Below, piece by piece: positions 39,208 to 64,000 of a stretch of 64,000 nt of DNA. A program made the translations under genes and the position numbers. Under the pieces are notes generated by a model. That model did not search any database. It saw only the letters and a program-made list of their open reading frames with translations, and was not told the DNA's origin. This stretch comes from an uncultured Candidatus Saccharibacteria bacterium (GTDB lineage Bacteria > Patescibacteriota > Dojkabacteria > J137). Positions within the stretch are counted from its first letter, which is position 1. Each line of letters starts with the position of its first letter. Where the stretch lies: NCBI GenBank assembly GCA_965230975.1, contig OZ246402.1, positions 573,009 through 637,008 of the forward strand, read 5' to 3'.

Positions 39208-42200
39208 ATGAGAATGAGAGATCCGCTAAGAAAATATAGAACCAGTCAGCGAAAGCTCAAAAAAATTCATTTGCTTATTATTTTGGCGGTTAGCATAACC
39301 ATATTCCCATTTGTACTTGTAGTTAATACTATCACAACAAGAGCAGTAGACTTTACATGGACACAAACAGACTGGAGTGGGGGTGTTAATACCAACGTAA
39401 TAACTTCAAATTCTAATACTTTCGTATCTCAAAGCTCAGTAGATTATGCAACTCCAGGAGAGATATTTTTAGGAGCAACTGAAAATTGGAGTGATGGTGC
39501 CTGGTCATATAGAAAATCAGTTAATCTTTCTAATACCGGATCAACATTAAGTAATTATCAGGTTATGGTAACTATTAACACCCAGCAACTTGTCTCTTTA
39601 GGTAAATTACAAAATGATTGCGATGATTTACGATTTACTACAAGTACAGGCACACAACTCAGTTATTATATGGATCCTGACTCTACTTGTAACACAGCAT
39701 CAACAGACTTTTGGGTTAAGGTTACTAGTATCCCAGCAGGTGCATCTGTAATACATATGTATTACGGAAATATAGCAGCGTCAAATGTTCAAAATGCAGA
39801 AAATACATTTGAATTTTTTGATGAATTTACAGGGTCTTCTTTAGATGCTGCAAAATGGCAAACAGGCGTAGGTGCAACAATTCCGGTTACTATAACCGGT
39901 GGGTATATGCTTCCTGGTTATGTGCCTTACAATTGGTCTGGTGCTTTAGCAAATGGTATGGGGGTTGCTCAAAACCAAATTAAGTATGGTGTTGTGGATG
40001 ATGTAGCTGTTGAATGGAAATCTTATATGGTTTTAGGTTCCACATTAGAGTATGGTCAATCAGGGTTTGCATTTGTAGACTCCAGTAATCTTTTAAGAGC
40101 AGCTATGTACCATGCAGATACAAATGTGAATACTTTAAACCCTTACTATGGTAATTTTATAGGGACTACAGTTGGTTCTTGGACCGAAGTCAATGGAGGC
40201 ACTTCTCGATTTAAACTTGTTAGAAATGGAACAAGTGTTACTTCGTATAGAAATAATGCACAGCAATCAACTGGTACTATGACAGTTAGCCCTACCAAAA
40301 TCACTTATTTCAAGCAGGACTATTATCCTAATGGTGGAAGTTGTGGTGGTAACTGTTACATGCAAAATAACAGAATATTTTGGGTCTTTACAAGAAAATC
40401 TGCTGCTACACCTCCAACAATCTCATCTTATGGGGTAGAACTTGGTCAATATGCAGATACGGGTACGTTAGAATCAAATATTTTTGATACTGGATTTTCT
40501 TCTAATTGGAATGCATTAACATTTACTAAAACAGGTAGTGGTACTGCAACAGTTAGAATTAGAACAGGAAATGCATCAGATTTAAGTGATGCTACAGCTT
40601 TTGCCTCTTGCAACACAATCTCAACTGGTGCAGATATATCAACAAATAATTGTGTAACTGATGGGCACAGATATTTACAGTATCAAGTCTCATTAAGTGC
40701 TAGTGGGACTTCACCAACTCTAACTGATATTTCAATCTCTTATACTCCTCAAGATTCTACTGCACCATCTGCAAATTCAACAAATGTACAATTAACAGGT
40801 TTATCTAATAACGATTGGGCAAAAATTGCACCAACAATAACTTGGACAGCAGGTACAGATGCAGGTGTTGGCATTGCAGGTTACTGTGTTTCTTTAGATG
40901 AAGTTCCAGTAGCTGGTTCATCTTCAACTTTGAATCCAATAACTTCATCAGGAAAATTTACAGGCTTAACAGATGCTAGCAGTTTAACACCTACAGTTTG
41001 CCCATATATTGTCAGTGGTAATTCACTAGATTTATCTACAGTCACGGGTTTAACTTTAACAAGTGGTAATAAATATTACTTTAGTTTAAAAGCGGTAGAT
41101 TTGGCAGGCAACGTTTGGACAGGAGCAAGTAATTTATATCAAGATTTAGTATGGTTTAGATTTGATAATACTTTACCTACAGCACCTAGTTTTATATCTA
41201 TGCCATCTAACTTTATATCTACAAAAGATGTAACAATAACTTGGCCAACAAGTAGCGGAGGTGCGTCAGATGCTGACTCTGGCTTAGCTGGTTTACAATA
41301 CAGAATTGGTGCTAGTGGAACATGGTTTGGTAATTTACGAAATGGAAATCAAGATTTAACAGACTTGCTTTTAAATAATGGAACTTATACTACAGATGCA
41401 ACCGTAGATTACCCACTATTACAAGAAGGTGTAAATGTTATTTACTTTAGATCTCTAGATTATGCAGGCAATGCATCTCTAACAATATCTGGAGCATTAA
41501 AATTAAATACTATTGCACCACAATCGATACAAAATTTAACTGCAACCCCTACTGACAATAATGTAAATAGTTACGCATTCTCTTGGGATCTACCATCTAG
41601 CTTTAGTGGTTCTGCAGATAACTTAACTTATTGTTATACAATAAATACTTTACCAACTGTCAATACTTGCCAATTTACCTCTGCAGGGGCTACTAACGTA
41701 TCTGCAGATGCATATGCAAGCCAACCAGGAGATAATACATTTTATGTAGTTGCAAAAGATGAGGCAGGTAATATTAACTATGCAACAGCAGAAAGTGTTA
41801 CATTTACGTATTCTGGTAGTGCACCTGGAATACCTCAAAATTTAGATGTTTCAGATATTTCTAATAAAGATACTCAAGATTGGAAGCTAGCAGTTACTTG
41901 GAATGAACCAACAAATGTAGGCGCAGGTATATCTACCTATAGAGTTTATAGAGCTATAGGTCAAGGTTTAACTTGTGCAAATGACTTTGGCCTATTTAGT
42001 CAGGTGAGTGTTGTTCAAGATGTATCATATATTAATACAGGTTTAAGCCAACAATACTACTCTTATTGTGTAAGGGCGTGTGATAGCGCAAATAATTGTT
42101 CTGCAGTTAGTGGTAGTGGAGATGAATTACCAACAGGTAAATACACAACACCTGCAACATTAGTTGCTGGCCCAACAACTCAACAAATTTCTACCAGAAA

Positions 42201-43359
42201 AGCAGTTGTAAGTTGGTCTACAAACAGAACATCAGATTCTAAAATTCAGTATGGTACGCAAACAGGTGTTTATTTTGAAGAAGAGTTTTCTAAATCTGCA
42301 CAAGTTACAGAGCATGTTATTACTTTAAATAACTTACAACCTGGAACTGTTTATTATTACAGAGCAAAGTGGACAGATGAAGATGGCAATACAGGTATTA
42401 GTGAGGAAAAAACATTTAAAACTGAACCTGCACCAGAAATCTCAAATGTTCAAACAAGTTCAGTAGGTGTTAACTTTGCTTTAGTTAAATTCACATCTGT
42501 TAGAGCTCAGAAAGTTAATATATATTATGGTAAAACAAGCCAATTTGGTGGTTTACAAACTATAAACACATCTATTCAAGAATCTCAAAGTATTTTTCAA
42601 TTAACTGGTTTAGATGATGGCACAAAGTATTATTTTAAAATAAACCCATTTGACTTAGATGGATTTGAGTATGAAGGAACTACACTTGACTTTACAACAG
42701 TTCCAAGACCAAGGGTCTTAGATGTTCAAATAGAAGAGGTAAAAGGCACAGCTCAACCAACTATTAAAGTTAATTGGAATTCAAATACAGAAATTAGCTC
42801 AATTGTTACATTTTACCCGGCTTCTAACTCGGGTTTAAAGCAAGATGTTGTAAATGTTACACCAAAAACTAAACATGAGCTTAAGTTAATATCATTAGAA
42901 GCAGAGACAAGATACGTACTAACTGTTAGAGGTATTGATAAATTAGGAAACGAGGCACTATCTACAGAATATAGCTTTACAACTGCTACAGACTCAAGAC
43001 CTCCAGTAATTTCTAACCTTAATGTAGAGACAGCAATCACAAATTCTACAGAAGTTAATAACGCCCAAATTGTAGTTTCTTGGACTACAGATGAATTATC
43101 TACTAGCCAAGTGTTGTTTGGTGAAGGGATTAATGAAAATGTAACACAAAGTACAACAGAAGATAAAAACTTAAAGTTTAATCATGTAATAGTTATATCT
43201 AACTTAAACCCATCTCAGGTTTATACAATAAGGGCTGTATCTAGAGATAGCCAAAGAAACGAAACTCAATCTGCAGATAATGTAACCGTTACTCCTTCAA
43301 GAACTGATTCTGCACTAGAGCTTATTTTGCAAAATGTATCGGATATTTTTGGAATATAA
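39208..43359 (+). CDS. giant surface protein: DUF2341 + LamG/concanavalin-like + multiple FN3-like repeats
   Basis: 1383 aa with an N-terminal TM/signal anchor and a DUF2341-like block (WSYRKSV...DCDDLRFT...FWVKV...MYYGN). Four C-terminal ~95-aa repeats each end in a (F/V)T(T/V) motif. Confidence 0.75.
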   Translation: MRMRDPLRKYRTSQRKLKKIHLLIILAVSITIFPFVLVVNTITTRAVDFTWTQTDWSGGVNTNVITSNSNTFVSQSSVDYATPGEIFLGATENWSDGAWSYRKSVNLSNTGSTLSNYQVMVTINTQQLVSLGKLQNDCDDLRFTTSTGTQLSYYMDPDSTCNTASTDFWVKVTSIPAGASVIHMYYGNIAASNVQNAENTFEFFDEFTGSSLDAAKWQTGVGATIPVTITGGYMLPGYVPYNWSGALANGMGVAQNQIKYGVVDDVAVEWKSYMVLGSTLEYGQSGFAFVDSSNLLRAAMYHADTNVNTLNPYYGNFIGTTVGSWTEVNGGTSRFKLVRNGTSVTSYRNNAQQSTGTMTVSPTKITYFKQDYYPNGGSCGGNCYMQNNRIFWVFTRKSAATPPTISSYGVELGQYADTGTLESNIFDTGFSSNWNALTFTKTGSGTATVRIRTGNASDLSDATAFASCNTISTGADISTNNCVTDGHRYLQYQVSLSASGTSPTLTDISISYTPQDSTAPSANSTNVQLTGLSNNDWAKIAPTITWTAGTDAGVGIAGYCVSLDEVPVAGSSSTLNPITSSGKFTGLTDASSLTPTVCPYIVSGNSLDLSTVTGLTLTSGNKYYFSLKAVDLAGNVWTGASNLYQDLVWFRFDNTLPTAPSFISMPSNFISTKDVTITWPTSSGGASDADSGLAGLQYRIGASGTWFGNLRNGNQDLTDLLLNNGTYTTDATVDYPLLQEGVNVIYFRSLDYAGNASLTISGALKLNTIAPQSIQNLTATPTDNNVNSYAFSWDLPSSFSGSADNLTYCYTINTLPTVNTCQFTSAGATNVSADAYASQPGDNTFYVVAKDEAGNINYATAESVTFTYSGSAPGIPQNLDVSDISNKDTQDWKLAVTWNEPTNVGAGISTYRVYRAIGQGLTCANDFGLFSQVSVVQDVSYINTGLSQQYYSYCVRACDSANNCSAVSGSGDELPTGKYTTPATLVAGPTTQQISTRKAVVSWSTNRTSDSKIQYGTQTGVYFEEEFSKSAQVTEHVITLNNLQPGTVYYYRAKWTDEDGNTGISEEKTFKTEPAPEISNVQTSSVGVNFALVKFTSVRAQKVNIYYGKTSQFGGLQTINTSIQESQSIFQLTGLDDGTKYYFKINPFDLDGFEYEGTTLDFTTVPRPRVLDVQIEEVKGTAQPTIKVNWNSNTEISSIVTFYPASNSGLKQDVVNVTPKTKHELKLISLEAETRYVLTVRGIDKLGNEALSTEYSFTTATDSRPPVISNLNVETAITNSTEVNNAQIVVSWTTDELSTSQVLFGEGINENVTQSTTEDKNLKFNHVIVISNLNPSQVYTIRAVSRDSQRNETQSADNVTVTPSRTDSALELILQNVSDIFGI

Positions 43360-43362
43360 ATT

Positions 43363-45633
43363 ATGGCAAATATATTAGAAGTAAAAAATCTATTTAAGGT
43401 TTACAACGTTAAGTCTGAAAATGTAGTTGTGTTAAGAAATATTAATCTTGAAATGCAAGATGGAGAATTCTTGATTCTTTTTGGCCCATCCGGTTGTGGA
43501 AAATCTACACTTTTAAATACAATTTTAGGTTTAGAAACTATCAGTAGTGGTAGTGTAAACTTACTTGGAAAACAAATTTCAAACCTCTCTCAAGACCAAT
43601 TAGCAGATATTAGAAAAAACAATGTAGGTATAGTTTATCAACAACCAAATTGGGTTAAATCTTTAAATGTTTTAGAAAATGTAGCTTTTCCATTATTAAT
43701 TAAAGGGATTAAAAGGGATGTAGCCTTAAAAAAGGCTAAAGAGAAGTTAGCATTGGTAGAAATGACAAATTGGACAGAATACTATCCGGTTGATTTATCT
43801 TCGGGTCAACAGCAAAAAGTTGCATTAGCCAGAGCATTAATTAATGAACCAAAAGTTTTAATAGCAGACGAGCCTACTGGTAATCTTGATTATAAAAGTA
43901 GCAATTCGTTAATGGGTATTTTTAGAGATTTATCTAATCAAGGTATCTCTATACTTTTAGTAACTCATAACCTTGTAAACTTAGATTATGCAGATAGAGT
44001 TGCCAGAATGTTTGATGGACAAATTGTAGAGTATATAGATGCAAAAAAAATATCTGAAAAAAAGCTAGATGAAATGTTGCACCCTACAGATGTTACCAAT
44101 AGTACATCTTATAAATTAAGTTTTAATATTAATAAACCTAAAAAAATTAACTTACTGGCAGATATTTTAAAAGGTCTATTATTACCACTTTTACTAGTAA
44201 AAACTGTAACTCTATTAGCTTTGTTTAGCGTGTTTAAATTATCAACTATTTTAAATAGAATAGGGTTTTATAAGTTATCTGAATCCATAGATTATTTAAT
44301 AAATATTATAGATAGAAGAGAGAATAATTCAGTAAGGTTTTCAGATGTAGCTGATATCTCTTTGAAAACTTTATTTACACACAGGGTTAGGACTTTTGTA
44401 ACAATTGGTGGTGTTGCTGTTGGTGTAAGCTTTACTGTATTGTTATTTTCTATTGGATTTGGATTTGAGCAAGTTGTTGTATCTAGAATTGCTAACTTAG
44501 AAGAATTAAATCAAGTTGATGTTGCACCACTCCCTACTAGTAATGTTTTTATAACAACTAATTCTGTGGAATCACTTAAAAATATTCCATCAATTAACAC
44601 TGTTTTACCTGTTATTGGTATTGCAGGCAAAACTAATTATGAAGGTGCTTTAGCAGATGTTGTTGTTAAGGGTGTTTCTACGAATTATATAAAAGATACA
44701 GGTTTAAAGATTACAGCAGGTAATGAGTTTTCTGCTGAATCAAATGATTTAAACTTTCAAAACATAGATGAAATTGTTCAAAATTATAAAGATAAGAATC
44801 AAATCGAAGATGATTCTTTAGGTGAAATAATTTTAGATTTACCAATTAAAGAAAGGCAAGCTGTTGTAAATGAGTCAATTTTGAATCTTTTCAATTTGCG
44901 TAAAGAAGATGCAATAGGTAAGACTTTTAAAGTTAAATTTATAGCTACTAATTCTTTAATAGGGAATAATTATAAAATATCTTCTACAGATACAGAGTAT
45001 ACAATTGTAGGTGTTGTTTCTTTTAAAGAAGAGAAGAATATTTACATTCCTGCAGAGGATTTATTGCCATTGGGTGTTCAAAGATTTTCAGAAGCCAAGT
45101 TAATTGTTTCTAATACGGACGATATTAGAAATGTTAGGGTTTCAACAGAGGCATTAGGTTTTAGGACTAGATCTATTCAAGATACTATTTCTCAGGTTAA
45201 TGCTGTGTTTGATAATGTTAGGTTAATTTTTGGAGCTGTTGGAGTCGTTGCTTTGTTTATAGCATCTTTAGGCATGTTTAATACTTTAACTGTTTCTTTA
45301 CTTGAAAGAATAAGAGAGGTTGGATTAATGAAAGCAATTGGTATGAAGTCTTTTGAAGTAAGGTCTTTGTTTTTAGCAGAGTCTACTATTATGGGCTTTT
45401 TTGGCGGTTTCTTTGGTATTATTTTAGGGGTTATTTTAGGTACGATCTTATCTTCTATTATATCTGCACTTTATATATCTAGAGGGGGAGAGTATGTAAC
45501 ATTGACTTTCTTACCACTAGAAGCAGCATTGGCAATATTGTTTATATCTGTATTGATTGGTATTTTGACAGGGTACTATCCTTCTGTAAGAGCAACAAGA
45601 ATATCTCCGTTAGAGGCATTAAGACACGAGTAG
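43363..45633 (+). CDS. fused ABC ATPase + FtsX-type permease (MacB-like)
   Basis: Walker A GPSGCGKST, LSSGQQQK, LIADEPT; then TM helix, large extracytoplasmic domain and a 3-TM FtsX-like C-terminus. Starts 4 nt after the giant gene. Confidence 0.8.
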   Translation: MANILEVKNLFKVYNVKSENVVVLRNINLEMQDGEFLILFGPSGCGKSTLLNTILGLETISSGSVNLLGKQISNLSQDQLADIRKNNVGIVYQQPNWVKSLNVLENVAFPLLIKGIKRDVALKKAKEKLALVEMTNWTEYYPVDLSSGQQQKVALARALINEPKVLIADEPTGNLDYKSSNSLMGIFRDLSNQGISILLVTHNLVNLDYADRVARMFDGQIVEYIDAKKISEKKLDEMLHPTDVTNSTSYKLSFNINKPKKINLLADILKGLLLPLLLVKTVTLLALFSVFKLSTILNRIGFYKLSESIDYLINIIDRRENNSVRFSDVADISLKTLFTHRVRTFVTIGGVAVGVSFTVLLFSIGFGFEQVVVSRIANLEELNQVDVAPLPTSNVFITTNSVESLKNIPSINTVLPVIGIAGKTNYEGALADVVVKGVSTNYIKDTGLKITAGNEFSAESNDLNFQNIDEIVQNYKDKNQIEDDSLGEIILDLPIKERQAVVNESILNLFNLRKEDAIGKTFKVKFIATNSLIGNNYKISSTDTEYTIVGVVSFKEEKNIYIPAEDLLPLGVQRFSEAKLIVSNTDDIRNVRVSTEALGFRTRSIQDTISQVNAVFDNVRLIFGAVGVVALFIASLGMFNTLTVSLLERIREVGLMKAIGMKSFEVRSLFLAESTIMGFFGGFFGIILGVILGTILSSIISALYISRGGEYVTLTFLPLEAALAILFISVLIGILTGYYPSVRATRISPLEALRHE

Positions 45634-56808: not shown

Positions 56809-57108
56809 TTAAGCTTCTCTGTCGATTTCTTTATTTCCTAGTTCAGATTCTTGAATGTTTTTAATATCAACAGTTCTTCTAGCTAAGTACAGAGAACCAA
56901 CGCTATGTTGAAGCATTTTAATTAAACCATCAGGAGTATGGCTGCTATCGATTTCACCCTGCCCGTTAATTCCTACATAAATATTCCCATCAGTTTGAAC
57001 AAAATATACTGTATTCTTCTCTATAGCTAGTTTTTTAGCATTCGCAAGTCTTTCTTCATATGTTTCAGGAACAGTTTGATCTATTAAATCCTCAATGTGG
57101 TAGTTCAT
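56809..57108 (-). CDS. hypothetical protein
   Basis: 99-aa ORF with a good upstream promoter. Confidence 0.55.
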   Translation of the reverse strand: MNYHIEDLIDQTVPETYEERLANAKKLAIEKNTVYFVQTDGNIYVGINGQGEIDSSHTPDGLIKMLQHSVGSLYLARRTVDIKNIQESELGNKEIDREA

Positions 57109-57500: not shown

Positions 57501-58211
57501 TTATGATTCTGGAGTATCGCCAACCAGTAATCTTAATTGGGAGATAATTTGGTCCAATTCCCCATCTTTATTAGAAATATAATTAGAAAATAAATGTCTT
57601 TTTGCAAGAATAGCTCGTGCATTTCTAATTCGACCCTGAAATTCAACCTCACTTTCTCCTCGATCTCTTAGTGAAAGTCTACTTGAAATTACCTCTAAAG
57701 CTTTTTCTACTCCATTCTCACCTTCAATTTCTTCAGTAGTAATAGGACTTATAAAGCAATCATAAATTGGAATATTAAGTCTCTTGAAGATATCTTTCAA
57801 AAGTAGAGCTCCATCAACGTCAATATCTAAGATTAAACGGTTTCCATTGTTCAAAGCCACTAGTATATCATCTAAGCTTGTTCCATAGTATCCTTGCCCA
57901 TATTTACTCCATTCTAATAGCTTATTTTTATTTACTTGGTCTAGGAAGTCACTTTCATCTAAGGAATGATAATTAGATTCATTAGGATTCATACTTTTAG
58001 TCGTCGTTCTATTAACTTTAGTATATCCTCGATTGCTTGCCATAAGTTTTTCAATTATAGAACTTTTACCAACTCCATTAGGGCCAGTAATCAAAATAAC
58101 TTGAAAGTTATGTTCACCTAGGCGTTCAGATAAAGTTAGAAAATTAATCTTATCTACAGTTTGGTTCTGTCCCCATTTATAATTTCTATCTAAGTCCATA
58201 ATTATCATCAA
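57501..58211 (-). CDS. guanylate-kinase-like P-loop NMP kinase
   Basis: P-loop GPNGVGKSS, TTK...ESNYHSLDESDF, and LEWSKYGQGYYGT parallel Gmk motifs; carries a ~35-aa N-terminal extension. Confidence 0.6.
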   Translation of the reverse strand: MMIIMDLDRNYKWGQNQTVDKINFLTLSERLGEHNFQVILITGPNGVGKSSIIEKLMASNRGYTKVNRTTTKSMNPNESNYHSLDESDFLDQVNKNKLLEWSKYGQGYYGTSLDDILVALNNGNRLILDIDVDGALLLKDIFKRLNIPIYDCFISPITTEEIEGENGVEKALEVISSRLSLRDRGESEVEFQGRIRNARAILAKRHLFSNYISNKDGELDQIISQLRLLVGDTPES

Positions 58212-59073
58212 TTAAATGTAATCTGCGTTCAATTTCTTCTATATCAATAGGAAACTCTATCATCCCTTCGTGCTCAACACTTATACTCGAGAGAGCATTT
58301 GCAAATTCAATAGATTCTTTTAATGCTGCAGATTGATTTAATTTAAATATAAAACCTGCTCTCCAAACATCTCCTGCTCCAGTTGGATCTATAGAATTTG
58401 TACGATAGGTTGGAAAGATTTGTTCTAATTCAGCAGTAACTAATTTGACTCCGCCTGCTCCCAAGGTTTCAATTACTACTTTTTTATTGTCAGTTAATTC
58501 TTTGGGAGACATCTTCAATCTTGACTGAATTCTTTCCCATTCGGCATGATTAGCAATTACAATACTAGAATTAGTTATACCACTTAATAATTCCTCGTCA
58601 GATAAATTATGTAATATCATTCCTGGATCATACATATAAGTACATTTTGATTCGATTAATATTCTTTGAACTGTGAGAAATAAACTTTTATCAATAGGTG
58701 AGAGTATTGTAAAGTCAGTTGATAAGAAAGGTGGAAGTAATTCCGGATCAATTAGTCTAGATAGTCTATCCTCAAATCTTAACCAGTCTTGGTGACCATC
58801 AGAGTATGTATTTACTTCTCCTTCTGAAGTAGAAGATCTTTCAAATACAAATAAATTTGCAACATCAACACCTACTTCAGCTAAAGTATTTCTCAGAACT
58901 TCTCCATTAGATCCTATCGCGCCAATTAAACTTATTTTATTTTCTGATAGGCGAGCTAAAGTATGAGCTATTGTGAATCCAGTGCCTCCTAGAAAAATTT
59001 CTGAAGATATATTTCTGTCTAAATAGTTATTTTTTACAAATCCAACTGAACCAATAATATTTATATGTGCCAT
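58186..59073 (-). CDS. PfkB-family sugar/nucleoside kinase
   Basis: DPTGAGDVWRAGF ATP-binding motif. ORF is open to 59115, but the ATG at 59073 (MAHINIIGSVG) sits 1 nt after the upstream stop. Confidence 0.8.
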   Translation of the reverse strand: MAHINIIGSVGFVKNNYLDRNISSEIFLGGTGFTIAHTLARLSENKISLIGAIGSNGEVLRNTLAEVGVDVANLFVFERSSTSEGEVNTYSDGHQDWLRFEDRLSRLIDPELLPPFLSTDFTILSPIDKSLFLTVQRILIESKCTYMYDPGMILHNLSDEELLSGITNSSIVIANHAEWERIQSRLKMSPKELTDNKKVVIETLGAGGVKLVTAELEQIFPTYRTNSIDPTGAGDVWRAGFIFKLNQSAALKESIEFANALSSISVEHEGMIEFPIDIEEIERRLHLIDDNYGLR

Positions 59074-59074
59074 A

Positions 59075-59662
59075 CTATTTTTTATCACCAAATATCCTTC
59101 TGAATTCTTTATCAACTAACTTTCTTATTAATTCGGCTTTGCTAACTTCAAGATTTGTAGAGAGTTGTTCCATTTGTTTAAGTGTATTTGTTTTTAAAAC
59201 TACATTAAATCTTCTCTTTGGGGGATCAAGTTCGTCGATGTATTCAATAATCACATCTTCTAATTTATCTAAGTCCTTATATCTTCTAACGGTAACGAAG
59301 TCTTCTCCATACGAAAGAAGTGTTTCTGGAAATTCATTATATTTATCCTCATGAACAAGACAAAGTACAGGAATTTTATTTTCTAATGCTAATATTGTCT
59401 GAAAGAATACAGTTCTTGATTTATCAGTGAAGTATGCAACAGCAAAATCAATAGATCTAATTTGTTTTTGCGTCCCATCTACAATCGAATCTGTTTTATT
59501 CCTAACAGTTTTCTTGATAGCTGGTGGATATTCGTCAACAAATGCTGGATTATACATAGATACTCCTTGTGCACGAATTATATTTGCTATTTTTCTATAT
59601 ATTTCTATATTCAGATCTATATTTTTTATTGAAGCAAATAATCCAAATCTTTTAGCTTTCAT
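59075..59662 (-). CDS. nucleoside 2-deoxyribosyltransferase-like Rossmann domain fused to a C-terminal ribbon-helix-helix
   Basis: N-terminal FGLFASI...IRSIDFAVAYF...IPVLCLV pattern; C-terminal RFNVVLKTNTLKQMEQLSTNLEVSKAELIRKLV is CopG/RHH-like. Confidence 0.4.
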   Translation of the reverse strand: MKAKRFGLFASIKNIDLNIEIYRKIANIIRAQGVSMYNPAFVDEYPPAIKKTVRNKTDSIVDGTQKQIRSIDFAVAYFTDKSRTVFFQTILALENKIPVLCLVHEDKYNEFPETLLSYGEDFVTVRRYKDLDKLEDVIIEYIDELDPPKRRFNVVLKTNTLKQMEQLSTNLEVSKAELIRKLVDKEFRRIFGDKK

Positions 59663-60453
59663 AGTTTATAAAAATATTTAAGAACAATATTAAATAATCT
59701 TTTAGGTAAGTGACATTTACAAAATGCCAGAACTTTATCCCTATAGCTAACAAACTGAGATCTATTAGATTCAAAAATTATTGACTCTACGAGCTTAGCT
59801 ACATCTTCAGCTTTATTTCTGTCACTAAAAAAGTTTCTAAATCGTATTTGCCATTCCTCATATAGACTTTTGTATATACTATTTTCTATATTAATTGTTT
59901 CAATTATATTTTTGCCAAAACTACTTTTCACAGCACCTAAATAAATATTAGCTACTTTTATTTCAGATTCCTCGTTTAGAATGTCCAGAGTTTTACTAAA
60001 TGCCAGTTTAGATATTTCGTAATAGCCAAATGTAGGTATGTCTAATAATGAGCCTAAGGCTGCTAAATTTATTACTATTCCTTGGTTACTACGCAATTTG
60101 GGAATCAGAGATTTTAATAATTCTGTTGGACCGAAATAATTTATTTCAAATTGCTTACGAATATTCTCTATACTTAAGTCTTCGATAGTCCCTCTAAAAC
60201 CAACACCCGCATTGTTTATAAATATGTCTACTTGTTCATCTTTAAGTAAATTTATAACTTTCGGTATGCTATTAGAGTTACCTAAATCAACTTCAATAAA
60301 TTTATAATTGGACGGTTGTGAATCTATATTATTTCTACCTAATCCGATTATCTCCACATCATTTCTACTAGACAGCAAGGAAACAATAGAGTATCCAATG
60401 CCTGAACTGACTCCTGTGATAATGATTTTTTTCCTTTTATTTGATTGATTCAT
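59659..60453 (-). CDS. short-chain dehydrogenase/reductase (SDR)
   Basis: TGVSSGIG cofactor motif, NNAG, catalytic YEISK (YxxxK). Confidence 0.85.
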   Translation of the reverse strand: MNQSNKRKKIIITGVSSGIGYSIVSLLSSRNDVEIIGLGRNNIDSQPSNYKFIEVDLGNSNSIPKVINLLKDEQVDIFINNAGVGFRGTIEDLSIENIRKQFEINYFGPTELLKSLIPKLRSNQGIVINLAALGSLLDIPTFGYYEISKLAFSKTLDILNEESEIKVANIYLGAVKSSFGKNIIETINIENSIYKSLYEEWQIRFRNFFSDRNKAEDVAKLVESIIFESNRSQFVSYRDKVLAFCKCHLPKRLFNIVLKYFYKL

Positions 60454-61381
60454 CTTTAGCTAAACTTAGTAATAATCCAGTTGAAATATTGTTGTTACTT
60501 GGAAAAATTCTATTTATTTTTAAATATTCGCAGATTGCAAATATATTCATAAGCGCCTTATCTGCTGCCCACATATAATAAGGTTCGTCTGGGTAAAGAG
60601 GCATTCTATCTTCATAACTTAAACTAATTAGTTTCTCGTAAAGAGGTTTTAATTCTTCAACAGTTGTTTCGAACTTATGAGCACCAGTATTGTCAGAAGG
60701 TATTAGATTAAGATTCATTGCTTTAAAGAAATCTATAATGTTTGTACTTCCATAAACTAACAGTTCAGGTTGATTCTTTCCCTCAGTTAGAGATTTTAAC
60801 TGTTCTTTGACATAATCATAAGCTGCATTTACTTCCTCTTCACTAGGATGATGTGTTTTAGAGAATCTTTCTTGTAGATAATAAGTCCCTGTTTTAAATA
60901 AGAATGTTTGGAATATTTCTTCATCTTTTCCAATAACGACCTGAACACTTCCTCCTCCAATATCTGAAACTGCAATCACTTTACCGGGAAAATCTTTAGA
61001 AACTGAATGAAAGTAGACTTTTGCTTCATCGTCATGAGAAAGTGTTATTAATGAAATCTCAGTCTCTTGTTTTATCTTTTTTAAAACCTCATCTGCATTT
61101 TTTGCCTTTCGAATAGCTTCTGTGGTAACTCCAACATATTTGTTAACTCCAAATTCATTCATTTTTTCTTTGAAAAGTTTAAGAGCCTCAATTGTTTTAT
61201 CAATAGATTTCTCAATGATTGTATTATCAGTTTTATCAAGATCTCTTCCAAGAACAGTTAATTGTTTATCTTTATAAACTAATTCTGAATTGTAATTCGA
61301 ATCAAATTCTCTAATTTCGAACTTTGATTTTAATGTTCCAACATCTATCACAGCAACTTTTTTCTTTTTATTTTCTGACAT
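60437..61381 (-). CDS. Ppx/GppA-family phosphatase (ASKHA fold, short form)
   Basis: VAVIDVGTLKSKF and VSDIGGGSVQVV phosphate-binding loops; 314 aa, so only the two N-terminal domains. Confidence 0.7.
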   Translation of the reverse strand: MSENKKKKVAVIDVGTLKSKFEIREFDSNYNSELVYKDKQLTVLGRDLDKTDNTIIEKSIDKTIEALKLFKEKMNEFGVNKYVGVTTEAIRKAKNADEVLKKIKQETEISLITLSHDDEAKVYFHSVSKDFPGKVIAVSDIGGGSVQVVIGKDEEIFQTFLFKTGTYYLQERFSKTHHPSEEEVNAAYDYVKEQLKSLTEGKNQPELLVYGSTNIIDFFKAMNLNLIPSDNTGAHKFETTVEELKPLYEKLISLSYEDRMPLYPDEPYYMWAADKALMNIFAICEYLKINRIFPSNNNISTGLLLSLAKDESIK

Positions 61382-62666
61382 AAAAATAATTTTTTAATAA
61401 GTAATAATTTTGAGATAGATTAGATCGTAAAAAGCTACCACTAACAATATTAACGGTTTTTACATCTTCAATATCTTTTATTGTTTCTAAATCTACACTT
61501 CTATCTATTGTAATCGAAACAGGTCCCTTATATGCGTAGTTAATCATTTTGTGAGCTCGATTAAAATTAGATACTCGTTCAGTGTGATTCTTTGATTGAA
61601 GACAGACTAATGTTTCGTCTTTAATAAATTTTTCCCAAGGAAATAACTCATCAATTAAATCTTTAACGTCAAGGCTATAGTTTATTTTTTCAATAGTTAA
61701 TTTCTCGGTTTCAAATTTATCATAATTATCTCGGTTAATATGAAGAAAGATCTTACTACTTATATCTGTTTCTATATCTAAAAATTTGATCATTTGTTCA
61801 TACGATTCTTCTGATTTTGCAAATATGTGATAGTGAACATTAATGTGCGATGATTTCTCCCTTATATTTTTTATCAATTCTAATGTTAGATTAAGATTAG
61901 TGGATTGTTCGACAAATCCATCGGTGATATCTATATGTAAAAAATCAATTTTAGCTAATATTGCCTCATCGAGTGTATCAATATTTTGCTGAACAATATC
62001 TTGTATGGCATATCCAACTTGGTGATTTGAGATAATACTTTCTTTGTATAAAAGTTTAGCAATTGTGGACATTTTATTAGCATCTGTATTTTCAAATTCT
62101 GTTTTAGTAGCGGCTTTTATATTAGATTGTATATCAAAGCCATAAATATCAAGATCGATATACTTATAAAGATTTTCAGCTGCAATTCCACCTGCGAGAA
62201 AGATATTTTTTATATTGAGACTTTTAACTAGAGTATTTACTTTATCAAAACCTATTTCTTTTCCTGTACCTCCAACAAAGGATTTATCTAAAATATAGTT
62301 ATCTGCGTTTTTATTAGGTTTATCACTTTCAGATATAAGTACTTGAAATATTTCAACACTATCTCCATAGACACCTTTTAGATTGTCAATAATCTCATTT
62401 GAGTTAGAGTAATGTAGTTGAACAGCATCAAACTCCATGGAATTAATTAATTCTATAAGTGTCTCTAATTTTGTTTCCTTAGTAACCAAAACAGATTTGG
62501 TATCGGGATAAAACATTTTTAATTCCTTTATACAAATCTTGATCAGATCTAATCTTTTAAAATCATTTTCTGAAATAAGGTGAAACCCAAGATAATCTAT
62601 ACCTAGTTTTCCTGCAGTTCTTGTTTCGAAAATATTTTTTATATCGCAAAATTTAATTTTCTTCAT
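61368..62666 (-). CDS. fusion of a TrpF-like (phosphoribosylanthranilate-isomerase-like) barrel and a ribulose-phosphate-3-epimerase-like barrel
   Basis: N-half: KFCDI, AVQLH, GGTGKEIGFD, FLAGGI and GFDIQSNIK align with TrpF including the catalytic Cys and Asp. C-half: FLHIDITDGFVEQ and VSGSFL resemble RPE. Confidence 0.55.
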   Translation of the reverse strand: MKKIKFCDIKNIFETRTAGKLGIDYLGFHLISENDFKRLDLIKICIKELKMFYPDTKSVLVTKETKLETLIELINSMEFDAVQLHYSNSNEIIDNLKGVYGDSVEIFQVLISESDKPNKNADNYILDKSFVGGTGKEIGFDKVNTLVKSLNIKNIFLAGGIAAENLYKYIDLDIYGFDIQSNIKAATKTEFENTDANKMSTIAKLLYKESIISNHQVGYAIQDIVQQNIDTLDEAILAKIDFLHIDITDGFVEQSTNLNLTLELIKNIREKSSHINVHYHIFAKSEESYEQMIKFLDIETDISSKIFLHINRDNYDKFETEKLTIEKINYSLDVKDLIDELFPWEKFIKDETLVCLQSKNHTERVSNFNRAHKMINYAYKGPVSITIDRSVDLETIKDIEDVKTVNIVSGSFLRSNLSQNYYLLKNYFYVRK

Positions 62667-63352
62667 AGTAGATTATTTATAACATTCAACATGTCTGATT
62701 TGTAATCAGCTAATATAAACTTTGACCCAGCATTTAGTGCAAATTCCCTATCAATTAGATCATTATCACCAATATAATAATCCATCTTTACTCCAGAAAC
62801 ACTGTTCAGCTTATAAGCACCAAAACTATCAGGCTTATCTTTTAATATTTGACCTTCATATAAATCTTCTTCACCAATAATTACATCAAAAAAATCAATT
62901 AGATTGGCTTTAATTAATAGTGAAGTCACAATAGTCTTTCTAGTTGAACTAACAATTCCAATCTTTATATTTTTACTTTTAAGTGCAATTAATGCTGGAG
63001 TCAGATTCAGAGCAATTTGCTCTAATAAAGAATAGGTTTCTTCTTCAAGAATTGCTTTTATAGTTGCACTTTCTTTTAAACCCATAATTCTTTTTACTAT
63101 TTCATCTTCATTTTTTTCATTAAAATAAATACTGATCTGTTCTTTCATTCGAAAGTTGTTATCTAGAAATCCTTTCTTAATTCTTCGATAACTGTCAAAT
63201 CTTTCTCGGAGATTTGGTTCATAAGGAAGTAAATCTTCCAATAGAAAATTTATCCTCAAATCTTTTAAAGCAGATTCCCATCCTCTCTTATGAAAGCTGG
63301 TAGATTTTGCTATTGTTCCATCGAAATCAAATACAATAAACATATTAATCAA
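62663..63352 (-). CDS. HAD-IA family phosphatase
   Basis: Motif I FDFDGTIA, motif II GIVSST, motif IV GDNDLID. Confidence 0.8.
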   Translation of the reverse strand: MINMFIVFDFDGTIAKSTSFHKRGWESALKDLRINFLLEDLLPYEPNLRERFDSYRRIKKGFLDNNFRMKEQISIYFNEKNEDEIVKRIMGLKESATIKAILEEETYSLLEQIALNLTPALIALKSKNIKIGIVSSTRKTIVTSLLIKANLIDFFDVIIGEEDLYEGQILKDKPDSFGAYKLNSVSGVKMDYYIGDNDLIDREFALNAGSKFILADYKSDMLNVINNLL

Positions 63353-64000
63353 TATAATTTTTTAATAAACTAATTATTTTTTGTTTCTCTTTATCAAAAA
63401 CTCCTTGACGATTAGTATAACTAAATTTTTTATAAGTACCTGTGAAATTACTTGTGTAAGTAACTATTGCCTTTTCTAATACTTCGGGATTTACTCCTCC
63501 ATGATATGGTCTGATGAGATGATGATACCTATTAGTATTTTTAAATGATACAACAGCTAGAAAAGCTTCTTTAATATTTTTTGGATACAAATCTAAGAAG
63601 GTTTGAATTGTCTTTCCAGTTGTGGTCGAATCATCTAGGATTAAGACCTTATCAAAGCCTTGAAAATAGTTCTCATTATAAAAAGGTGGTAAAGAGTCAT
63701 CTAGATCTTGAACATAATTTGAACTTCCAGTTGAGTAGTTTGAAAGTGAGCAAATAATCTGACTTTCTAATGATTTATTTATGGTCATTCTAAAAGCATT
63801 AACAGCAAACGGAAGTTCCATTCCACCATATGCGAAACTCACAAGAAGAGTGTTAGATGGAATATATTGATCCGATACAACTTTAGCAAAATTTATAATT
63901 TTGTAAGGATGGCTACATTCTCTTATCTTCCTAATAATGTTGTTTTCCCAATGCTCACTAAATAGAGATCGAGAAGAGATCTCACTACAAAATCTCTTGT
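63345..64000 (-). CDS. type I phosphoribosyltransferase (5' end lies outside the window)
   Basis: PRPP-binding motif VLILDDSTTTGKT. By hand translation the frame stays open upstream of the track's GTG start all the way to position 64000. Confidence 0.7.
   Translation of the reverse strand, partial: KRFCSEISSRSLFSEHWENNIIRKIRECSHPYKIINFAKVVSDQYIPSNTLLVSFAYGGMELPFAVNAFRMTINKSLESQIICSLSNYSTGSSNYVQDLDDSLPPFYNENYFQGFDKVLILDDSTTTGKTIQTFLDLYPKNIKEAFLAVVSFKNTNRYHHLIRPYHGGVNPEVLEKAIVTYTSNFTGTYKKFSYTNRQGVFDKEKQKIISLLKNYID

Follow-up and report, generated by a model that had tools for sequence, protein, structure and literature searches.

The stretch of DNA analyzed here (the window) comprises 64,000 nucleotides of contig OZ246402.1 (positions 573,009 to 637,008; assembly GCA_965230975.1) from an uncultured Candidatus Saccharibacteria bacterium, and the system in question is a block of eight minus-strand open reading frames (ORFs), g1 to g8, packed between positions 57501 and 64000 (Table 1). 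The window has a GC content of about 31% and belongs to a cellular genome, with genes for transketolase, RadA, and a Mur ligase. All eight ORFs were found again at exactly the coordinates given in the original prediction, a reading of the bare sequence by a model, and the motifs quoted there are all present in the translations. As also noted there, g1 runs off the window at 64000; its frame is open up to base 63998, so that the gene is cut off by the window edge. The suggested extension of the contig past this edge was achieved with the same contig in an independent assembly (locus L001), which yielded the full g1 of 427 amino acids (L001:8039-9322) as well as a palindrome upstream of it. The listing of g1 as an ORF of 165 amino acids with a GTG start (63345-63842) is an artifact of the window boundary, and the true start lies elsewhere.

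The eight ORFs had been described as overlapping at every junction, which holds for five of the seven. Maximal TTG starts underlie three overlaps (g1/g2, g6/g7, and g7/g8); with the ATG starts of independent gene calls, which are backed by homologue alignments, the junctions from g1 to g8 are a 1-nt gap, overlaps of 4, 14, 17, and 4 nt, another 1-nt gap, and a 14-nt overlap, such that g1/g2 and g6/g7 are gaps. Even with ATG starts, the eight genes are one tightly coupled block. Inside the operon there is no terminator-like site, and promoter-like sites are not in excess, while the downstream neighbor (56809-57108) has a promoter match of its own (11/12). An Rfam scan of the operon and eight related loci returned no family and no riboswitch.

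Table 1. Features of the g1 to g8 cluster in the window (minus strand) and the variant cluster at locus L013.
Feature	Coordinates	Strand	Description
g1, last 217 codons of 427	63345..64000	-	Two-domain protein, N-terminal helical and C-terminal type I phosphoribosyltransferase-like
g2	62663..63352	-	HAD-IA phosphatase; probable start ATG 63343, 226 aa; Pfam HAD_2, E = 1e-16
g3 N-domain, aa 1-204	62055..62666	-	TrpF-like (beta/alpha)8 barrel; Pfam PRAI, E = 1e-14
g3 C-domain, aa 205-432	61368..62054	-	Ribulose-phosphate epimerase-like barrel; Pfam Ribul_P_3_epim, E = 1e-3
g4	60437..61381	-	Short Ppx/GppA-family ASKHA protein, 314 aa; Pfam Ppx-GppA (PF02541), E = 2e-32
g5	59659..60453	-	Classical short-chain dehydrogenase/reductase; Pfam adh_short, E = 3e-21; TGxSSGIG, NNAG, Ser/YxxxK
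g6 N-domain, aa 1-145	59228..59662	-	DNPH1/MilB/NDT-like fold; invariant T64, R69, K81-S82-R83
g6 C-domain, aa 146-195	59075..59227	-	Putative ribbon-helix-helix DNA-binding motif; PPKRRFNVVLK, then two helices
g7	58186..59115	-	PfkB-family kinase; probable start ATG 59073, 295 aa; DPTGAGD; Pfam PfkB, E = 3e-25
g8	57501..58211	-	Guanylate-kinase-like P-loop nucleoside monophosphate kinase; probable start ATG 58199, 232 aa; Pfam Guanylate_kin, E = 7e-16
Variant cluster	L013:4234-13799 (same as L025)		Shapirobacteria metagenome-assembled genome, 949-kb contig; TrpF-like and epimerase-like domains in separate adjacent genes, order swapped, each joined to other domains

With respect to conservation, related loci were collected with the fusion protein (g3) as a probe from Logan/ENA assemblies, GTDB contigs with one genome per species, and JGI metagenomes, and the cluster proteins were mapped onto them by tblastn. 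We observe that the order g1 to g6 is identical in about 16 independent loci at 27 to 78% protein identity, and that it holds in every locus with room for it, with the g5-g6 pair inverted in L012; this recurrence indicates that the arrangement is not due to chance. The kinase genes g7 and g8 are found in only 4 of 12 loci, g8 being present wherever g7 is, and are lineage-specific accessory genes outside the conserved core. In L003 (13566-13847), g6 is followed by a 68-amino-acid C-terminal PfkB remnant with no Gmk-like gene after it, which looks like decay of the accessory pair of kinases. The conserved unit is thus not the eight genes first proposed; it consists of six (g1 to g6) plus a GT2 glycosyltransferase and an APH/choline-kinase-like protein, which adjoin the core in 12 of the 13 loci whose flanks are long enough, with varying side and orientation. 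In addition, five loci carry a CTP_transf_like nucleotidyltransferase whose best model is HldE domain II (E = 2e-18).

All named homologues belong to Patescibacteria, also known as the candidate phyla radiation (CPR), and come from WWE3, Gribaldobacteria, Shapirobacteria, and metagenome-assembled genomes (MAGs) labeled Saccharibacteria. Seven loci with the cluster were found among 185,579 species genomes, and 2.9 million viral contigs contained no relatives. Since the flanks vary between loci, the cluster resembles an island of accessory genes in the Patescibacteria. The co-localization that the original prediction had proposed to look for in related genomes is strong, so that the outcome named there as refuting did not arise, and none of the operon proteins reached the cutoff of a housekeeping-enzyme equivalog in an NCBIfam scan. 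The gene combination had further been called undescribed, and our searches of the full-text literature likewise returned no account of such a gene cluster.

The product of g1 has a helical N-terminal domain of about 230 amino acids, encoded beyond the window, for which profile searches detect no relatives, and a C-terminal domain with the loop VLILDDSTTTGKT, which would bind phosphoribosyl pyrophosphate (PRPP), and a pyrophosphate-loop-like YGGMELPF. Both loops are kept in ten full-length homologues, as L-I-L-D-D-S-x-T-T-G-[RK]-T (with one exception pair having E for D) and YGG[IM]ELPF, respectively. No direct Pfam, NCBIfam, or PDB match was obtained for g1, a word-indexed search with its window fragment returned three partial proteins only, and its profile gives a weak, co-linear alignment with HPRT structures (positions 224 to 350, E = 0.28). 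When 1.84 billion representative proteins were searched exhaustively with the g1 profile, only 84 relatives came up. The distant ones match Pfam Pribosyltran (PF00156) over the corresponding region (E = 2e-9 to 4e-12), and it is through these that the predicted phosphoribosyltransferase (PRTase) identity is supported, transitively. Judged by sequence, g1 belongs to a previously unrecognized type I PRTase-like family with very few members. Three of the distant relatives are fused to an N-terminal HAD domain, a Rosetta-stone link between g1 and the phosphatase g2. The latter holds all four HAD motifs, including FDFDGT (motif I), the Lys of motif III, and GDxxxD (motif IV), which are kept in 13 homologues, and its nearest NCBIfam model is the beta-PGM/YqaB subfamily, with a score far under the cutoff.

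The third gene had been read as a fusion of a TrpF-like and a ribulose-phosphate epimerase (RPE)-like barrel, and the Pfam and structure matches bear this out. About 40 sequence clusters make up the fusion family, each with a length near 430 amino acids. Its N-terminal domain scores 54.8 bits against PF00697 (cutoff, 22.7), and the corresponding profile matches E. coli TrpC-F (1PII, E = 4e-7). Across 22 homologues, C7 (at least 90%), D127, GG159-160, and GFDxQS176-181 are invariant or nearly so, and GGT132-134 is conserved as well. By alignment, the Cys that serves TrpF as general base and the Asp that serves it as general acid are retained together with the phosphate-binding motifs. The Cys had been placed correctly in the original prediction, whereas the Asp is D127 in YILDKS and not that of GFDIQS, which is the conserved beta8/phosphate motif of TrpF. 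Scores against the NCBIfam TrpF equivalogs are 48 to 66 bits (cutoffs, 212 to 380), the E value jumps from 1e-67 to 1e-5 between the fusion family and the first true TrpF, and no trp genes lie nearby, indicating that the domain is a predicted TrpF-like paralogue and not TrpF itself. As the original prediction had stated, no trp or his genes are adjacent; a remnant trp or his operon was rejected as a reading. For the C-terminal domain, several homologues carry precomputed PF00834 matches, and seven of the nine PDB matches of its profile are RPEs (best 2fli, E = 0.038). H244-x-D246, H280, D388, and a terminal G410-S phosphate loop are invariant or nearly so, and the RPE metal and catalytic residues align with 2fli and 1h1y at marginal E values of 0.04 to 2.6.

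The g6 product (192 to 195 amino acids, 40 to 78% identity between loci, and with g4 the most conserved) combines two domains. The N-terminal one has the characteristic flavodoxin-like fold of the NDT/DNPH1/MilB N-glycosidase superfamily, with a near-invariant Gln88 that aligns at low probability (hhalign) with the catalytic Glu nucleophile, Glu104 of DNPH1. This placement agrees with the SxGVGY[E/F] motif register of the homologue in the variant locus L013, which has a Phe at the catalytic-Glu position and otherwise keeps S-F-G-V-G-Y. Compared to DNPH1/Rcl, MilB/BlsM, and the nucleoside 2-deoxyribosyltransferases, g6 thus has a Gln (Phe in L013) in place of the catalytic Glu and, because of this replacement, we do not class it as an N-glycosidase. 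The C-terminal domain resembles a ribbon-helix-helix (RHH) motif: Pfam RHH_3 matches at E = 5e-3 (17.2 bits, below the cutoff of 21.6), the profile aligns with CopG (1B01/2CPG) over residues 148 to 182 (E = 0.17), and in an AlphaFold2 monomer model, built from a multiple sequence alignment of 47 sequences, helices 161-171 and 175-191 come after an extended segment. A direct PDB sequence search with g6 gave no match. The original call of an NDT-like protein with an RHH motif therefore stands for the fold and a putative RHH but not for an NDT-type enzyme, and g6 is better read as a ligand-sensing transcription factor, a candidate RHH repressor, with the N-terminal domain as putative sensor for a 5-phosphoribosyl ligand. 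Relative to the CopG/Arc RHH repressors, we found no description in the literature of a DNPH1-like fold fused to an RHH motif.

A perfect 19-bp palindrome, TTATACA-N5-TGTATAA, is found in all ten loci whose 160 nt upstream of g1 were aligned. On the contig studied here it lies at L001:7934-7952, about 715 to 733 nt past the window end; it does not occur within the 64-kb window, the start of g1 lying beyond 64000. Its right half forms the extended -10-like TGTATAAT. Allowing at most one mismatch, 13 palindromes are present in 216.7 kb of non-redundant loci versus 0 to 1 in shuffles, and all 13 are linked to promoters, either 5 to 87 nt upstream of g1 or at GT2, nucleotidyltransferase, or g5-g6 positions. 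In L003 the palindrome stands 22 nt upstream of the GT2 gene, which has its own promoter there; in L005, L008, and L021 it occupies the intergenic region shared by g1 and a divergent GT2 or nucleotidyltransferase gene; and in L012 it heads the inverted pair of g5 and g6. Furthermore, the motif was predicted beforehand for two new loci fetched via divergent g6 homologues, and each contained exactly one perfect site, located 33 nt ahead of g1 in one locus and 5 nt in the other. The palindrome is thus upstream of g1 in 12 of 12 loci that include this region; it is absent from the divergent L013 locus. The shared palindrome ties the GT2 module to the core, and g6, as the only DNA-binding protein of the conserved set, is the natural candidate repressor for it, a pairing that we infer.

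With respect to the remaining proteins, the assignments first made for g2, g4, g5, g7, and g8 (HAD, Ppx/GppA, short-chain dehydrogenase/reductase [SDR], PfkB, and Gmk-like, respectively) are all backed by Pfam matches. For g4, PF02541 scores 113 bits (cutoff, 27), PDB 1T6C matches at E = 1e-25, and TIGR03706 reaches 142 bits, under its cutoff of 307. Its DIGGGSVQ motif has an invariant Gln where the Aquifex Ppx/GppA has Glu148, and its N terminus reads IDVGTLKSKFE in place of DxGSNS, so that the phosphate-1 motif is GTLKS and not GSNS; identity between loci is 52 to 71%, and g4 is far better kept than most of its operon partners. In the g5 protein, the Gly-Arg that follows beta2 and marks the NADPH type is conserved, and the Ser/Tyr/Lys triad is complete and kept among homologues; its nearest solved structures are uncharacterized SDRs, it reaches no NCBIfam equivalog cutoff, and it is probably a ketoreductase. 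The nearest relatives of g7 are nucleoside/adenosine kinases and ribokinase, with PDB matches to Mycobacterium tuberculosis adenosine kinase and MJ0406 (E = 1e-12), and it too reaches no NCBIfam cutoff. In g8 we observe a conserved N-terminal WGQNQ extension, 91 bits against TIGR03263 (under the cutoff of 160), weak PhnN matches, and a GMP-binding region in which TTR...RxGE...Y.F is partly replaced by TTTK...NE..NYHSL, with E...YGT kept.

The variant Shapirobacteria locus L013 has a g6 homologue (hhalign probability, 92%) and a Ppx protein at 61% identity; g1 (PRTase), g2 (HAD), and g5 (SDR) are not present in it. Its RPE-like domain is the C terminus of a 673-amino-acid protein and matches PF00834 weakly, as in g3. 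The middle part of this protein has a weak Pfam PNP_UDP_1 match (E = 4e-5) and NCBIfam matches to S-adenosylhomocysteine/AMP nucleosidase (E = 2e-4 to 4e-4), and its N-terminal region has no PDB match. The neighbors encode a group II pyridoxal phosphate (PLP) decarboxylase, a CobD/HisC-like PLP enzyme, and Amidohydro_2, NTP_transf_2, and NUDIX proteins, and hhalign found no relationship between the g1 profile and the two multidomain proteins of the locus. As a lead only, this set would fit N-riboside and amine chemistry, with another enzyme forming the glycosidic bond.

The flanks of the clusters hold further genes. Often directly upstream of g1 (L001:7368-7919, L003, L007, L014, and L015) there is a protein of about 150 to 183 amino acids without a family match, p183, and L026 and L027 have genes for about 155 amino acids at this position; p183 possibly also belongs to the system, and BLASTP revealed no similarity between it and the ASCH protein of L005. 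Upstream of the GT2 gene, L001:1-5000 encodes a LexA-like Peptidase_S24 repressor, DUF1508, a faint SMODS match, and several hypothetical proteins, and may be a mobile or defense-type region beside the cluster. The flanks of L005 contain an IS1595 transposase, Fic, ResIII, and a methyltransferase. Elsewhere in the window, on the plus strand at 39208-45633, a surface-type protein of 1383 amino acids (DUF2341/fibronectin-III/purple-acid-phosphatase-N) is directly followed by a MacB-like ABC transporter with the ATPase and the FtsX permease in a single protein of 756 amino acids.

We tentatively propose that the eight genes are the distal part of a Patescibacteria-specific, self-regulated biosynthetic cluster, whose pathway would start from PRPP and supply a modified pentose-amine unit to a glycan module. 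TrpF catalyzes the Amadori rearrangement of an N-(5-phosphoribosyl)arylamine that a PRTase makes from PRPP. By our reading of substrates, order, and direction, g1 would couple PRPP to an amine or N-nucleophile to give an N-(5-phosphoribosyl) compound, and the TrpF-like half of g3 would carry out an Amadori rearrangement to a 1-amino-1-deoxy-ribulose-5-phosphate derivative. The metal-dependent RPE-like half would then epimerize the ketose phosphate, the NADPH-type SDR g5 would reduce a carbonyl, and the HAD phosphatase g2 would take off the 5-phosphate. The APH-like kinase, the HldE-II-like nucleotidyltransferase, and GT2 would activate the product and transfer it to a surface glycan or other acceptor. 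By analogy with HisE, which acts after HisG, g4 is possibly a phosphohydrolase on a polyphosphorylated acceptor or intermediate. The disabled DNPH1-like domain of g6 would sense a phosphoribosyl intermediate, and its RHH would bind the palindrome over the extended -10 of g1. The original prediction of a ribose-phosphate or non-canonical nucleotide pathway is thus kept with respect to an undescribed PRPP-type gene set, while the GT2 link favors a glycan building block over a free nucleotide.

Several points weigh against this proposal. The chemistry, with its amine acceptor, is predicted from the proteins' sequences. No PRTase model matches g1 directly, the call being transitive, and some PRTase-like domains, such as those of PurR and PyrR, are purely regulatory. 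The RPE-like domain scores 18.7 bits against PF00834, under the Pfam threshold of 21.1, and the nucleosidase-like match at L013 is weak (E = 2e-4 to 4e-5). The proposed route gives no firm role to the highly conserved g4, which carries a Gln at a catalytic Glu position. For g6, the Glu-to-Gln call comes from a low-probability hhalign alignment with an approximate DNPH1 reference sequence, and its pairing with the palindrome is by elimination. Finally, a GT2 donor needs an anomeric center, which is a poor fit with full reduction to an alditol, so that we may have misinterpreted either the SDR step or the connection with GT2.

Four known systems offer partial precedents. In the tryptophan (TrpD-TrpF) and histidine (HisG-HisE-HisI-HisA) pathways, N-ribosylation with PRPP likewise precedes an Amadori rearrangement, which takes place in a (beta/alpha)8 barrel that binds ribulose phosphate, and HisE, a phosphohydrolase between PRTase and isomerase, provides the analogy for g4. 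Unlike these, the cluster has a new family of type I PRTase in place of TrpD or HisG, fuses the TrpF-like barrel to an RPE-like one, follows it with an SDR and a HAD protein, and is linked to GT2. In the riboflavin route, the RibD reductase step leads from an N-(5-phosphoribosyl)amine to the reduced compound with an open chain, from which a HAD phosphatase then removes the phosphate; the chemical logic proposed for g3, g5, and g2 is the same. The cluster uses a TrpF-like protein and an SDR instead of the DHFR-like reductase, has an extra epimerase domain, and is without GTP cyclohydrolase, lumazine synthase, and riboflavin synthase. Decaprenyl-phospho-arabinose (DPA) synthesis in Corynebacterineae uses PRPP as donor, a PRTase, a 5-phosphatase, an epimerization by way of a keto intermediate that the SDR DprE2 reduces, and glycosyltransferases, and shares with the cluster PRPP as the activated pentose for a glycan building block. 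The DPA PRTase, however, is a membrane protein of the UbiA type with a lipid phosphate as substrate, and epimerization there depends on the flavoenzyme DprE1, whereas the cluster has a soluble type I PRTase and TIM barrels. The ADP-heptose route (GmhA, HldE, GmhB, and HldD) also has a PfkB kinase, a HAD protein, a CTP_transf_like nucleotidyltransferase, and an SDR feeding a glycosyltransferase; in contrast, no SIS protein occurs in any cluster locus, only 4 of 12 loci have PfkB and five have the nucleotidyltransferase, and ADP-heptose synthesis has nothing equivalent to the PRTase, the TrpF/RPE fusion, or the Ppx-like protein. The cluster matches none of these four systems in enzyme families or gene set.

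Among the alternatives, an amine-free route through pentose or pentitol phosphates to a nucleotide sugar fares best, and we consider it rather unlikely. The barrels would here be a plain isomerase and epimerase of ribose-5-phosphate, ribulose-5-phosphate, and xylulose-5-phosphate, the SDR would make a pentitol phosphate as for CDP-ribitol or CDP-arabinitol, and kinase, HAD protein, and nucleotidyltransferase would act as in ADP-heptose synthesis, with g1 either running in reverse, drawing ribose-5-phosphate from nucleotides, or only sensing PRPP, for which the regulatory PRTase-like domains named above are a precedent. The closeness of the neighboring nucleotidyltransferase to HldE domain II, a weak match of g7 to HldE domain I, and the co-regulation of GT2 through the shared palindrome all fit, as do HAD, SDR, and GT2 proteins, which are standard parts of nucleoside-diphosphate-sugar routes. 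The TrpF general acid/base pair retained in g3 does not, and we know of no TrpF homologue that isomerizes an unsubstituted aldose. The nucleotidyltransferase and PfkB are moreover missing from most loci, an SIS isomerase is missing throughout, L013 has PLP enzymes that form amines as well as a domain resembling nucleosidases, and the HAD-g1 fusions favor a catalytic PRTase product.

The original prediction had itself named nucleoside/nucleotide salvage as the alternative, with g1 turning base into nucleoside monophosphate (NMP), g7 nucleoside into NMP, g8 NMP into the diphosphate, and g2 NMP into nucleoside, while g6 would hydrolyze or exchange nucleotides and g4 would handle (p)ppGpp or polyphosphate. 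Patescibacteria generally depend on salvage, and the affinities of g7 (adenosine/nucleoside kinases), g8 (Gmk-like), g1 (weakly HPRT), and g6 (DNPH1/MilB fold) point the same way. However, 8 of 12 loci are without the two kinases, with decay evident in L003, salvage would need neither the TrpF/RPE fusion nor the SDR, and g6 is without its nucleophile and carries an RHH. A set present in 7 of 185,579 species genomes is too rare for core salvage, and it is co-regulated with GT2 and reaches no housekeeping equivalog cutoff. This alternative is thereby weakened to the point of being improbable, and a canonical salvage operon was rejected, g7 and g8 being mostly absent and the fusion and SDR without a role.

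A reading in the reverse direction, as catabolism of ribulosamines (Amadori compounds) or deglycation, has a poor chance of being correct. The kinases would phosphorylate, the RPE-like domain would epimerize, and the TrpF-like domain would lead back to an N-ribosylamine, which would be cleaved to ribose-5-phosphate or PRPP plus an amine. In the E. coli frl system, Amadori compounds are handled by a PfkB kinase together with a 3-epimerase, and the fold of fructosamine-3-kinases is APH-like; g7 weakly matches fructoselysine 6-kinase, the neighboring kinase is APH-like, and TrpF reactions are formally reversible. Set against this, the Amadori rearrangement is strongly favored in the forward direction, the cluster has neither transporter nor deglycase, GT2 and the nucleotidyltransferase indicate biosynthesis, and the NADPH-type SDR would be idle.

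Very improbable, finally, is a nucleotide-centered conflict or defense module built of PRTase, NDT-like, kinase, and Nudix-type parts, or a chance juxtaposition of housekeeping genes: PRTase and NDT-like domains can be effectors in retrons and other defense systems, and the flanks differ between loci, with the IS1595 transposase and restriction genes in L005 and the LexA-like and faint SMODS matches upstream in L001, but PADLOC gives only generic P-loop matches on g8 and nothing specific, the viral contigs contain no relatives, a defense system was rejected, the parts are all metabolic enzymes with intact active sites, and chance is ruled out by the gene order over about 16 loci together with the shared operator.

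In its boldest form, the proposal is that of a new PRPP-dependent pathway confined to Patescibacteria, leading to an aminodeoxy-pentulose or -pentitol derivative that would become a unit of a surface glycan or a new small molecule, and controlled by a new class of repressor, a catalytically dead DNPH1-like sensor fused to an RHH, with a 19-bp operator; we consider this possible, with some reserve. New are the gene combination, the PRTase family, the double-barrel fusion, and the sensor-regulator architecture, while the superfamilies and the plan of an RHH-repressed operon are known.

Patescibacteria account for a large share of bacterial diversity and have a minimal, poorly understood metabolism, and conserved multigene units of this sort offer a seldom available way to learn what these episymbionts produce. 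If the proposal is true, Amadori chemistry of the TrpF/HisA type would gain a use outside amino acid synthesis. The sharply defined operator makes regulon mapping and ligand screening feasible, and if the product decorates the cell surface, the pathway may have a bearing on the attachment of the episymbiont to its host.

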